DNA from: Octopus vulgaris
Lineage: Eukaryota
Reading direction: 5' to 3'
NCBI GenBank assembly: GCA_951406725.2
Contig: OX597827.1
Span: forward strand, 84,630,001 to 84,694,000
DNA: 64,000 bases
Positions 40,595 through 52,003 of this stretch are shown piece by piece. The stretch's first letter is position 1. Every line of letters starts with the position of its first letter. The notes beneath the pieces are model-generated. The model saw only the letters and a program-made list of their open reading frames with translations. It was not told where the DNA came from and searched no databases. The translations under genes were made by a program, and so were the position numbers.

Positions 40595-42375
40595 TATGTA
40601 TATATATATATATATATATATATATATATATATATATATATATATATATATATATATATATATATATATATATATATATATATATATATATATATATATA
40701 TATATATATATATATATATATATATATATATATATATATATATATATATATATATATATATATATATATATATATATATATATATATATATATATATATA
40801 TATATATATATATATATATATATATATATATATATATATATATATATATATATATATATATATATATATATATGTATATATATGTATATGTATATATATA
40901 TGTATATGTATATATATATGTATATGTATATATATATGTATATGTATATATATATGTATATGTATATATATATGTATATGTATATATATATATGTATATG
41001 TATATATATATATGTATATGTATATATATATATGTATATATATATATATATATATATATATATATATATATATATATATATATATATATATATATATATA
41101 TATATATATATATATATATATATATATATATATATGTATATATATATATATATATATATATATATATATATATATATATATATATATATATATGTATATA
41201 TATATATGTATATATGTATATATATATATATATATATATATATGTATATATATATATATATATATATATATGTATATATATATATGTATATATATATATA
41301 TATATATATATATATATATATATATATATATATATATATATATATATATATATATATATATATATATATATATATATATATATATATATATATATATATA
41401 TATATATATATATATATATATATATATATATATATATATATATATATATATATATATATATATATATGTATATATATATATATATGTATATATATATATA
41501 TATATATATATATATATATATATATATATATATATATATATATATATATATATATATATATATATATATATATATATATATATATATATATATATATATA
41601 TATATATATATATATATATATATATATATATATATATATATGTATATATATATATATATATATATATATATATATATATATATATATATATATATATATA
41701 TATATATATATATATATATATATATATATATATATATATATATATATATATATATATATATATATATATATATATATATATATATATATATATATATATA
41801 TATATATATATATATATATATATATATATATATATATATATATATATATATATATATATATATATATATATATATATATATATATATATATATATATATA
41901 TATATATATATATATATATATATATATATATATATATATATATATATATATATATATATATATATATATATATATATATATATATATATATATATATATA
42001 TATATATATATATATATATATATATATATATATATATATATATATATATATATGTATATATGTATATATATATATATATATATATATATATATATGTATA
42101 TATGTATATATATATATATATATATATATATATATATATATATATATATATATATATATATGTATATATGTATATATATATATATATATGTATATATATA
42201 TATATATGTATATATATATATATGTATATGTATATGTATATGTATATATATATGTATATGTATATGTATATATATATGTATATGTATATGTATATATATA
42301 TGTATATGTATATGTATATGTATATATATATGTATATGTACATATATATATGTATATATATATATATGTATATAT
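40595..42375. repeat. 1.8-kb (TA)n array
   Basis: Directly visible. Confidence 0.97.
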
Positions 42376-43146
42376 GATTGATTGATTGATTGATTCTAGT
42401 TTCAGCTTATGAGCTGTGGCCATGCTGGGGCACCGCCATTTTGTGTTGCTACTTGGTTTCAATTCATGGAGGCTTTCTAGCAGCTGCTATTTGGTGCATG
42501 AGAGAGTTCGATGCAGCTGCCCTCATCTGCCCCTCCTGCCGTGAAGTTGGTTCATCTGGGACACCTGACAGGAAGAGATCCAGCTTCATTTTAAAGACAT
42601 CTGTATCCACCCCATGCAGGTCTCTCAGGTTCTTCGGGAGGATATTGAAGAGCTGTGGGCCTCGGAAGCCCAGGCTATCACAGAATCTTGTCCTACATCT
42701 TGATGGCAGGTTTGGAGTCCTAGGCACCACGCAGTGGCGCCCAGTTCTGGCATTTGCGTAACTCTCGATGCCAAAGTTCAGGACACTTCCCTCCAGGATC
42801 TTCCAGATGTATATTATGGCATATCTTTCCCGCCTACGCTCCAGGGAATATAATTTTAATCTCTTGAGTCTTTCCCAGTAGCTTACATTCTGCATAGAGG
42901 CTATCTTCTTTGTGTAGCTTCGTTGGATCGCCTCAAGTTCTGTGATCAACTTGACACTGGATGGTGACCATAGCAGAGAGCAATAGTCAAAGTGGCTTAG
43001 GACAAGTGTCTTCCAGAGGACCATCATGGTTTCTTGTTCTCTTGTTCTAAAGGTTCTAAGAATCCATCCAGCCAGCCGTCTACATTTCATTGTCAGTTTA
43101 GCAACATGTACATGAAAGGTCGCGCCATCACTCATGTGAATACCCA
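42376..43146 (-). mobile_element. 5'-truncated LINE copy, near-identical to ~48593-49366, (AATC)n tail
   Basis: Protein matches the ORF2 C-terminus apart from about three residues; (TA)n on both sides. Confidence 0.95.
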
Positions 43147-43702
43147 TGTATATATATATATGTATATATATATATGTATATATATATATATGTATATATA
43201 TATATATATGTATATATATATATATATGTGTATATATATATATGTGTATATATATATATGTGTATATATATATGTGTATATATATATGTGTATATATATA
43301 TGTGTATATATATATGTGTATATATATATATGTATATATATATATGTGTATATATATATATGTGTATATATATATGTGTATATATATATATATGTATATA
43401 TATATATGTATGTATATATATATATGTATATATATATATATATATATATATATATATATATATATATATATATATATGTATATATATGTATATATATGTA
43501 TATATGTATATATATATATATATGTATATATATTATATATATATATATATGTATATATATATATATATATATATATATATATATATATATATGTATATAT
43601 ATATATATATATATATATATATGTATATATATATATATGTATATATATATATATGTATATATGTATATATATATATATATATATATGTATATATATATAT
43701 AT
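43147..43702. repeat. (TA)n array
   Basis: Directly visible. Confidence 0.95.
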
Positions 43703-44164
43703 GTGATATATGGTTCCGTTTTCAGCAGAGAAAGACGTGATTGCCTTTGCTCTGTGAAAAAGTCTGCATAGAACGGCGAAATAACCCACTGTAGTTGCAA
43801 AACGTAAAACTCTAAGTCATAGAGATCACTACAACACTTTGGTTAAAAATATTTTAAAAAATATATATATAAATATATACATATACACAGTAATTTTCAT
43901 TTTCGCCGAAACGCACATGGTGCAAAAATAACTGAATCAAGTTATCTCCTGCAAGAAAGAAAAAAGAAGCATCTCTCCCGAAAAAAATCCCGTAAACCAA
44001 AAAAAAATTATCCAGACCACATTGTTGGATTAAGTATCAATTTCATCTATTTCATATTTTATTTATTATTCTATTTTATCTTTCACTTAGGCCCACATCT
44101 TAGTTAAAGTTGCGATCGTCATTTGGTTTGTTTACATTTTCAATAACTGTTCTCGATATAATAA

Positions 44165-49420: not shown

Positions 49421-50118
49421 CGGCTAGCTGGAGGGAGCTGCATCGAACTTCTCATGAACAAGAGAGAAGGAGATACTGATGGTCCTATGGAAAACATTCG
49501 TCCTCAGCCGCTTGGACTACTGCTCCCAACTTTGGTCACCACACAATATAAAACAAACAGCAGAACTCAAAGCAACTCAGAGAAGCTACACAAAGAAAAT
49601 CGTCTCAATGCAAAATGTCAGCTACTGGGAAAGACTGAAGGTATTAAACCTCTTCTCCCTGGAGCGGAGGCGGGAGAGATATGCAGTGATATACATCTGG
49701 AAAATCCTGGAGGGTCTTGTCCCAAACTTTGGCATTCAAAGTTACTCCAACCGCAGAATGGGCGCCGCTGCATGGTGCCAAGGATTCCAACATCACCATC
49801 AAAATACAGGTCCAGATACTACAACAGCTTGGGTTTCAGAGGACCACAGCTCTTTAACATCCTCCCTAAATGCCTGAGAGACTTACATGGTGTGGATGTG
49901 GGTTTCTTTAAAACTAAACTGGATCTCTTCTTGTTGGGAGTCCCAGATGAACATACCTCACGAAAGGAGACACGGATGCGGGCAGCAGCATCGAACTCCC
50001 TTGTTGATCAAGTGCCACGTATCAGAGGTGGATTCACAAACTAGTGTAGCTCATTCAGCGGTGGTGCCCCAGCATGGCCGCGGCCTTCGGGCTAAAACAT
50101 TTTTAAGGATTTAAGGAT
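49421..50118 (+). mobile_element. 5'-truncated LINE, related subfamily, (TTTAAGGA)n tail
   Basis: [19 protein letters not shown]...[12 protein letters not shown]...RAAASNSL; 3' motif ggtggtgccccagcatggccgcggccttcgggctaaaac; (TA)n on both sides. Confidence 0.92.
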
Positions 50119-50829
50119 GTATATATATATATATATATATATATATGTTTATATATATATGTATATATATGTATATATATATATATATGTATATATATGT
50201 ATATATATATGTATATATATATATATATATATATATATATATATATATATATATATGTATATATATGTATATATATATATATGTATATATATGTATATAT
50301 ATATATATGTATATATATGTATATATATATATATGTATATATATGTATATATATATATATGTATATATATATATGTATATATATATATATATATATATGT
50401 ATATATATGTATATATATATATGTATATGTATATATATATGTATATGTATGTATATATGTATATGTATATATATATGTATGTATATATATATATATATAT
50501 ATATATATATGTATATATATATGTATGTATATATACATATATATATATATATTATATATATGTATATATATATATGTATATATATATGTATATATATATG
50601 TATGTATATATATATGTATATATATATGTATGTATATATATATATGTATGTATATATATATATATATATATATATATATATATATATATATGTATGTATA
50701 TATATATATGTATGTATATATATATATGTATGTATATATATATATATGTATATATATATATATGTATATATATATATGTATGTATATATATATATGTATG
50801 TATATATATATATGTATGTATGTATATAT
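50119..50829. repeat. (TA)n array
   Basis: Directly visible. Confidence 0.95.
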
Positions 50830-51722
50830 GATTGATTCATTGATTGATTCTAGTTTCAGCTCATGAGCTGTGGCCATGCTGGGGCACCGCCATTTGGTGT
50901 TGCTACTTGGTTTTACTTCACGAAAGCTTTTTAGCAACTCCCATTTGGTGCATGAGAGAGTTCGATGCAGCTGCCCTCATCTGCACCTCCTGCCGTGAAG
51001 TTGGTTCATCTGGGACACCTGACAGGAAGAGATCCAGTCCTGCTTTAAAGACATCCGCATCTACACCATGTAGGTCCCTCAGGTTCTTCGGGAGGATATT
51101 GAAGAGCCGTGGGCCTCTGAAGCCCAGGCTATCACAATATCTTGTCCTACATCTTGATGGCAGATTTGAAGTCCTTGGTACTACGCAGTGGCGTCCGGTT
51201 CTGGCATTTGTGTGACTCTCGATGCCAAAGTCTGGGACAAGACCCTCCAGGATCTTCCAGGTATATATTATGGCATATCTTTCCCGCCTACGCTCCAGGG
51301 AATAGAGCTTTAATCTCTTGAGTCTCTGCCAGTAGCTCATATGCTGCACAGAGGCTATCTTCTTCGTGTAGCTTCGTTGGACGCCTCAAGTTCTGTGATC
51401 AACTTGACACTGGATGGTGACCATAGCTGAGAGCAATAGTCAAAGTGGCTGAGGACAAGTGTCTTCCAGAGGACCATCATGGTTTCTTGTTCTCTTGTTC
51501 TAAAGGTTCTAAGAATCCATCCAGCCAGCCGTCTACATTTCATTGTCAGTTTAGCAACATGTACATGAAAGGTCGCGTCATCACTCATGTGAATACGCAG
51601 GTCACGCACTGATTGTGCCTCTGGGATTGCAATCCCTCCGGGTCCAGTGTATTCATTGGGTATTGCATTCAGTTTTGCATGCTGATAGTATAAAGCTTGA
51701 AACTTTTCAGCATTGAACTGCT
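50830..51722 (-). mobile_element. 5'-truncated LINE copy, mosaic, (AATC)n tail
   Basis: Colinear with ~48470-49366; one 1-nt deletion near 51381; (TA)n on both sides. Confidence 0.93.
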
Positions 51723-52003
51723 GAATATATATGTATATGTATATATATATATATGTATATGTATATATATATATATATATATATGTGTATATATATATAT
51801 ATGTGTATATATATATATGTATATATATATATATGTATATATATATATATGTATATATATATATATGTATATGTATATATATGTATATATATATATATAT
51901 ATATTATATATATATATATGTATATATATATATATATATATATATGTATATATATATATGTATATATATATATGTATATATATGTATATGTATATATATA
52001 TAT

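Follow-up and report, generated by a model that had tools for sequence, protein, structure and literature searches.

LINE retrotransposons residing in (TA)n arrays of the Octopus vulgaris genome

Introduction

Among retrotransposons that lack long terminal repeats (LTRs), known as non-LTR elements, families with a specific target belong mostly to the early-branched, Tx1 and R1 groups (PMC4640811), and (TA)n is the preferred target of the Penelope-like Naiads (PMC8557442); here and below, statements on cited papers refer to the parts of each source that were covered. We analysed a 64,000-nucleotide stretch of the Octopus vulgaris genome (assembly GCA_951406725.2, contig OX597827.1, positions 84,630,001 to 84,694,000, forward strand), hereafter the window, in which six copies of long interspersed nuclear elements (LINEs) stand within arrays of (TA)n. 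The full-length copy encodes an APE-type endonuclease and a reverse transcriptase (RT).

LINE copies and their junctions in the window

Self-BLAST and tblastn located seven LINE pieces in the window (Table 1), six of which lay in one type of repeat. The four copies of the central cluster (B, C, D and E) occurred in both orientations with (TA)n on both sides, as did copy A on the forward strand and copy F on the reverse strand, confirming the original prediction made from this DNA; the start it gave for copy C (43703) was corrected, the 5' end lying at 43712. The prediction had also taken the four cluster copies for one group and A and F for a related lineage. The separate standing of A and F was upheld, with a deep split from C (RT identity 48%), but the cluster divided into two families, one of B, C and E (family 1, 92–99% alike) and one of D. 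All six TA-flanked copies retained their 3' end, their 5' truncation varied, and no LTR was present.

Junctions were scored by a strict test, which required a stretch of 10 alternating purines and pyrimidines, no fewer than 8 of them A or T, beginning within 3 letters of the element. Eleven of the 12 junctions of the six copies passed; the only failure, on the 5' side of C, was due to a phase break 6 letters out, inside an array of 565 bp. Applied to both sides, the same test was passed by 12.3% of 52,255 non-LINE sites and by 3.3% outside LINE-holding arrays, in a window of which TA-type arrays make up 10.9% (14% of the non-LINE part). When each occupied stretch was counted as one event, three of four placements were in TA (p = 0.007 at the higher background). 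As controls, another family of short interspersed nuclear elements (SINEs) had one of five copies in TA, and a CR1-like family of another host had none of 12 3' ends in TA, although this control is weak, its loci being only 1.1% TA.

Polarity of the arrays

Interruptions by TG placed G on the plus strand in all five arrays between 40599 and 52937 (53:1, 41:0, 52:1, 18:0 and 16:0), and this polarity was unchanged by the orientation of the inserted LINE (B and E reverse, C and D forward). Because TG polarity is constant whatever the element orientation, the (TA)n arrays are targets and not tails. The array between B and C cannot be a 3' tail, since it lies head to head with no 3' end beside it, and from this tail-free array and the constant polarity it follows that four independent insertions probably divided a single ancestral array. 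The arrays found at 10911 and 17647 were C-polar, opposite to those of the cluster, and a CA block of opposite polarity was seen at 33223–33297 within the otherwise G-polar array 32444–34052. The idea that the elements make the arrays themselves, through TA tails or slippage of the RT, finds some encouragement in tails that are short tandem repeats containing AT or TAT. It is largely refuted, and very improbable, given that TA is present at truncated 5' ends too, that the B/C array adjoins no 3' end, and that polarity does not flip between the D half and the E half of the tail-to-tail array (G:C interruptions by quarter 10:0, 15:0, 15:1 and 15:0).

Copies B, C, D and E represent separate insertions, as their truncation points and identities differ. 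Twin priming was rejected for B and C, B having its own tail and its own truncation. Target-site duplications were not discernible from the array itself, the best matches being 6–27 letters of TA, and the earlier suggestion that insertion may add to array length accordingly gained no support. Only six of 749 sites differ between B and C, so the younger of the two is recent. This bears on a further explanation, in which a weak preference for short AT-alternating seeds was exaggerated later, as microsatellites grew next to the insertion and copies at other places were lost. Flanks ranging from 14 to 1780 letters could be read in this way, as could the ends of a SINE (S1, below) near mixed TG/CA tracts, in which the genome is rich. 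Long arrays nevertheless lie at both B and C, the common polarity of five arrays indicates a single ancestor, and truncated copies in three other sequencing runs abut long TA; we therefore regard later growth from seeds as improbable.

Junctions in other sequencing runs

The first 153 letters of copy C were compared with contigs of four sequencing runs (X1, X2, X9 and X15), of which X1, X15 and X2 came from three studies under two organism labels and were assembled apart from the window. The table of loose ends at the 5' end was complete, with 18 rows, 15 of them before a match. Three of these 15 were judged by eye to be variants of the element itself, and all of the remaining 12 (16 contigs; X1, X15 and X2) showed a TA run at the family 1 5' end, which abutted the element in 11 rows and stood about 20 letters away in one. 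These rows included truncation points at 43726, 43758 and 43815, and 5'-truncated copies in all three runs abutted at least 20 TA letters. One X2 row had a family 2 tail and short TA ahead of a family 1 5' end, that is, stacking at another locus. Relative to single-copy pieces, depth over the 5' part was raised roughly 100-fold (X1: 4048 versus 25–42), a rough sign of many copies and not a count, and the share of contigs continuing into unlike sequence was 0.02, 0 and 0 in X1, X15 and X2. Many contigs of that kind would be expected if the flanks were unique. Depth climbed toward the 3' end of the element, and the raw-read runs X22 and X23 held just 4 and 19 element reads. Residence in (TA)n is family-wide at the 5' junction. 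The earlier proposal that the family targets (TA)n is supported by the statistics of the window, the polarity of the arrays and these 5' junctions in three runs.

The same junctions speak to the quality of the assembly. Contigs ending in (TA)n might have been joined, or reads mis-ordered across arrays, and neither reads nor contigs were shown to cross the whole cluster; duplications of 1.4 kb and 401 bp nearby may themselves be assembly features. Such an artefact is extremely improbable as a source of the pattern: the TA junctions of three runs were assembled independently of the window, just 54 bp of array joins C to D, polarity is consistent and the window holds no N. A mis-join could change the order of copies but not their flanks, and the family-level claim is independent of the assembly.

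Proposed mechanism of insertion

We consider it reasonably probable that the element's own endonuclease nicks (TA)n and primes reverse transcription there, in arrays that likely pre-existed the copies. The protein of the second open reading frame (ORF2p) would bind a two-hairpin structure at the 3' end of the element RNA, and its APE domain would nick (TA)n, probably at the TpA step, which is also where the human L1 endonuclease nicks. The RNA would then be copied from the nick and the 5' end joined to the same array. As (TA)n is identical on both strands, both orientations would arise from this symmetry, and no cruciform is needed to account for them; each insertion would leave target on either side, so that copies of several families could pile up. 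Copies B, C and E all join the array as AATC/ATAT, sharing no more than one letter even though a two-letter AT register was available; pairing between tail and target is therefore minor and does not aim family 1.

Several observations weigh against targeting by the element's own enzyme. An old family 1 fragment (22644–23890) lies outside TA. The endonuclease is unremarkable, its short T..D loop (6 residues) occurring also in 27 of 70 homologues. Metagenome and genome contigs supplied 160 related loci, two of which combined a good match to the C-terminus of the subgroup with a 3' flank; both (L001 and L081), from other hosts, lay outside TA. Since in the RT tree these two loci branch between A and C, the habit must be host-dependent or have been gained twice. 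Three further loci of the subgroup (L003, L004 and L082) were without a 3' end, and a search of viral contigs gave no relatives. Unrelated elements, with a hammerhead-like hairpin and a Helitron-like end, also sit in TA arrays here. Among the sequencing runs, X1 could itself be where the window came from, and the same loci may recur in rows of different runs; X9 yielded no matching contig at the 5' end, which counts neither way. At the 3' end, loose ends at 49343/49344 (69, 55, 85 and 52 contigs), among the matches listed, gave an A-rich consensus (agreement 0.59–0.64) that was not legible as TA and apparently represents other tail variants.

Part of this evidence would suit breaks or open DNA made by the host, in which long (TA)n is fragile or unwound and a LINE of low specificity, like any retroelement, primes at the ends so provided. 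In this genome TA surrounds both of the deeply split lineages, A and C, and it surrounds neither of the two relatives elsewhere, unrelated elements occupy the same arrays, the endonuclease loop is not distinctive, and pure array runs reach 411 letters. Endonuclease-independent insertions often lack complete tailed 3' ends, whereas each of the six copies here has a full, tailed 3' end of the sort that ordinary target-primed insertion leaves. Host breaks would also have to be reconciled with the other SINE family lying mostly outside TA (the one in five of the control), with copy F and several 5' junction rows standing in short tracts instead of long fragile arrays, and with a near-total TA occupancy at the 5' end across runs. 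On balance we judge host-made breaks unlikely as the cause, and retain nicking by the element's own endonuclease as the preferred reading.

Anatomy and classification

Copy C possesses the anatomy of a complete LINE, with tandem subunits in the 5' untranslated region (UTR), an open ORF1 and an ORF2 interrupted by one frameshift near 47036, which many other copies in the sequencing runs lack. In ORF2, Pfam recognised Exo_endo_phos_2 (1.3e-12) and RVT_1 (1.5e-30), and the catalytic motifs of the endonuclease were present; these predicted domains identify the elements as APE-type non-LTR LINE retrotransposons. The named protein nearest to ORF2 was from Argonauta (58%), and in a protein atlas the ORF2 C-terminus was nearest to arthropod and cnidarian clusters. 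A sequence search of the PDB with the endonuclease gave no significant match, and a structure model of an unbroken relative (P0004, not copy C; pLDDT 85.7) had human L1 ORF2p as its best match, at 18% identity. For ORF1, 32 relatives were found among representative sequences and the protein atlas held no usable match; weak Myb/SANT-like and CCCH matches like those of C were present in two of four homologues scanned, and CCCH-like fingers were seen by eye in an ORF1 of locus L001 (958–2553). The tails are family-specific short tandem repeats (AATC, TTTAAGGA, TATCAAAG and TATCTAAG) and not poly-A.

The elements probably belong to the CR1 group, judging by C-terminal ORF2 motifs, which we take to be CR1-like, and by the type of tail; the same motifs presumably set them apart from the R1 and Tx1 clades. 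An RT tree of 107 sequences, drawn from roughly half of the 152 eligible loci and from 27 of the 120 proteins, with its references unlabelled, joined A and C in a single subclade (support 0.98) together with many unnamed proteins. Other identities were considered. ORF1 of the R1 clade carries gag-like CCHC knuckles, and Pfam gave just the weak CCCH and Myb-like matches in C. A Penelope-like identity does not agree with an APE domain in place of a GIY-YIG endonuclease, and the idea that the LINE 3' end is a hammerhead, prompted by its stem-GAAAC finish, was rejected for lack of a CUGANGA core ahead of the stem. CR1-Zenon has no ORF1 and a poly-A tail (PMC13343379), and is excluded by the open ORF1 and repeat tails found here. 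Motif searches in published supplementary files (3, 1 and 12 of 33 files) gave no match; the other 21 files, like Repbase, could affect the classification.

A SINE with a similar 3' end

The two-hairpin at the 3' end was found in the six LINE copies and in four copies of SINE S1, whose head we take to be tRNA-like. Its terminal stem covaries: over five pairs in nine sequences, pairing was kept in 44 of 45 cells and both sides were changed in 12. A covarying hairpin of this kind is likely the mark of a LINE–SINE partnership. Copies of S1 were seen at 3013–3345, 3917–4298, 15660–16029, 20646–21079, 36667–36710, 38036–38070, 54596–54868 and 59959–60356, with ends that often touched TA or TG/CA tracts. 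Three of seven S1 3' ends lay near TA (background 12%, p 0.04) and five of seven near any alternating tract (background 17%, p 0.002). S1 probably borrows the LINE enzyme, with a looser form of the TA preference. A second SINE family had the 66 bp at its 3' end amplified to about seven tandem copies (61001–61458).

Other features of the locus

At 52235–52331 on the reverse strand, between two TA arrays beside copy E, lay a long-stemmed hammerhead-like core (z -4.7), likely the tip of a Penelope-like element; a minimal hammerhead-like core was seen at 6671–6696, also on the reverse strand. An element with a hairpin and a CTAG end, presumably Helitron-like, occurred at 36990–37630 and 38363–39000, one copy abutting a TA array. 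These positions fall within a 1.4-kb duplication (36990–38348 and 38363–39742, 96%), and a 401-bp tandem duplication (39793–40595, 98%) stops exactly where the large TA array begins. A 290-bp AT-rich piece with a CGAAAC motif was present in two copies (36114–36409 and 36707–36990, 83%), among TA tracts behind copy A. Rfam gave no match anywhere in the window. Eighty prokaryote genome records (L081–L160) carried LINE ORF2 sequences of animal or other eukaryote type, which are likely host contamination; one record had at least 11 copies of one family.

Table 1. LINE copies, arrays and associated features of the window
Feature	Position	Strand	Remarks
Copy A	34053..35929	+	family 2, 5'-truncated, several frameshifts, TATCAAAG tail; arrays 32444–34052 and 35930–36619 either side
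Copy B	42376..43146	-	family 1, 5'-truncated, (AATC)5 tail; 6/749 sites differ from C
Copy C	43712..49366	+	family 1, full length 5.65 kb, (AATC)6 tail
Copy D	49421..50118	+	family 3, 5'-truncated; 76% identical to C; tail of TTTAAGGA
Copy E	50830..51724	-	family 1, 93% to C (54/749 sites differ), 5'-truncated, AATC tail
Copy F	53861..54229	-	369 bp, 67% to A; flanked by short TA tracts 53845–53858 and 54230–54275
Old internal family 1 fragment	22644..23890	+	82% identical to C; lacks a 3' end and TA flanks
Tandem subunits in 5' UTR of C	44159..45357	+	
ORF1 of C	45416..46327	+	open; matches to Myb/SANT-like and CCCH finger domains weak and under the Pfam thresholds
ORF2 of C	46279..49274	+	APE endonuclease then RT; two frames, one frameshift near 47036
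3' two-hairpin element of C	49300..49339	+	common to all six copies and SINE S1
SINE S1 example with two-hairpin 3' end	3917..4298	+	TA tracts on both sides
(TA)n array	40594..42375	.	1.78 kb; pure runs of up to 411 letters; interrupted by TG on the + strand
(TA)n array separating 5' ends of B and C	43147..43711	.	565 bp, head to head
(TA)n, C tail to D 5' end	49367..49420	.	54 bp
(TA)n array, D tail to E tail	50119..50829	.	single TG polarity in 4/4 quarters
(TA)n array adjoining E 5' end	51725..52004	.	

Comparison with known systems

Tentatively, and with less confidence than we attach to nicking by the element's own enzyme, the APE endonuclease of a CR1-group lineage in octopods may have become truly specific for (TA)n. 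This would be a third origin of APE specificity beside R1 and Tx1, spanning at least three families and passed to a very common SINE, with an enzyme that reads the alternating TA helix or an extruded form of it. If true, a (TA)n-seeking family of CR1 type would add an independent origin with non-targeting relatives at hand for comparison of domains, its enzyme could serve as a probe of how long TA arrays are structured, and it would explain in part how octopus TA arrays become stacks of mobile elements. Should host-made breaks be the cause instead, the locus would illustrate clearly how fragile repeats can steer many classes of element.

A TA-targeting CR1 was not found in full-text literature searches, which were narrow and had Repbase outside their scope, nor is one mentioned in the covered parts of PMC13343379, PMC10294476, PMC4120745, PMC4758252 and PMC3747384. 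A term search of the covered part of PMC4120745 likewise found no ORF1 of the type with Myb/SANT-like and CCCH matches, and a term search of PMC6859323 gave no match. Described CR1-group LINEs (PMC13343379, PMC10294476, PMC4120745) resemble the octopus elements in an ORF2 of APE and RT, 5' truncation, a short-repeat tail and tandem 5' UTR subunits, and differ from them in that the octopus elements reside almost exclusively in (TA)n. Stem-loops common to the 3' ends of LINE and SINE are also known from molluscs, in CR1-14_CGi of oyster and its partner SINEs (PMC4824008, PMC4758252).

With respect to the target, the Penelope-like elements Naiad and Neptune (PMC8557442) come close, as they too prefer (TA)n, leave no discernible duplications and occur in octopus, but they combine a GIY-YIG endonuclease with pseudo-LTR or inverted structures, whereas the octopus LINEs have an APE domain and plain LINE anatomy. 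Dinucleotide repeats are also the target of elements with a restriction-like endonuclease, namely Togen at (TG)n and some HERO (PMC4640811), which belong to early-branching clades, unlike the APE-type octopus LINEs. Similar in enzyme and habit are Mino of the R1 clade, at AC repeats (PMC3124438), and members of the Tx1 clade (PMC4640811), which share the APE endonuclease, a repeat target and stacking; the octopus target differs from those of the R1 and Tx1 microsatellite LINEs in being the self-complementary (TA)n, so that insertions stand in both orientations.

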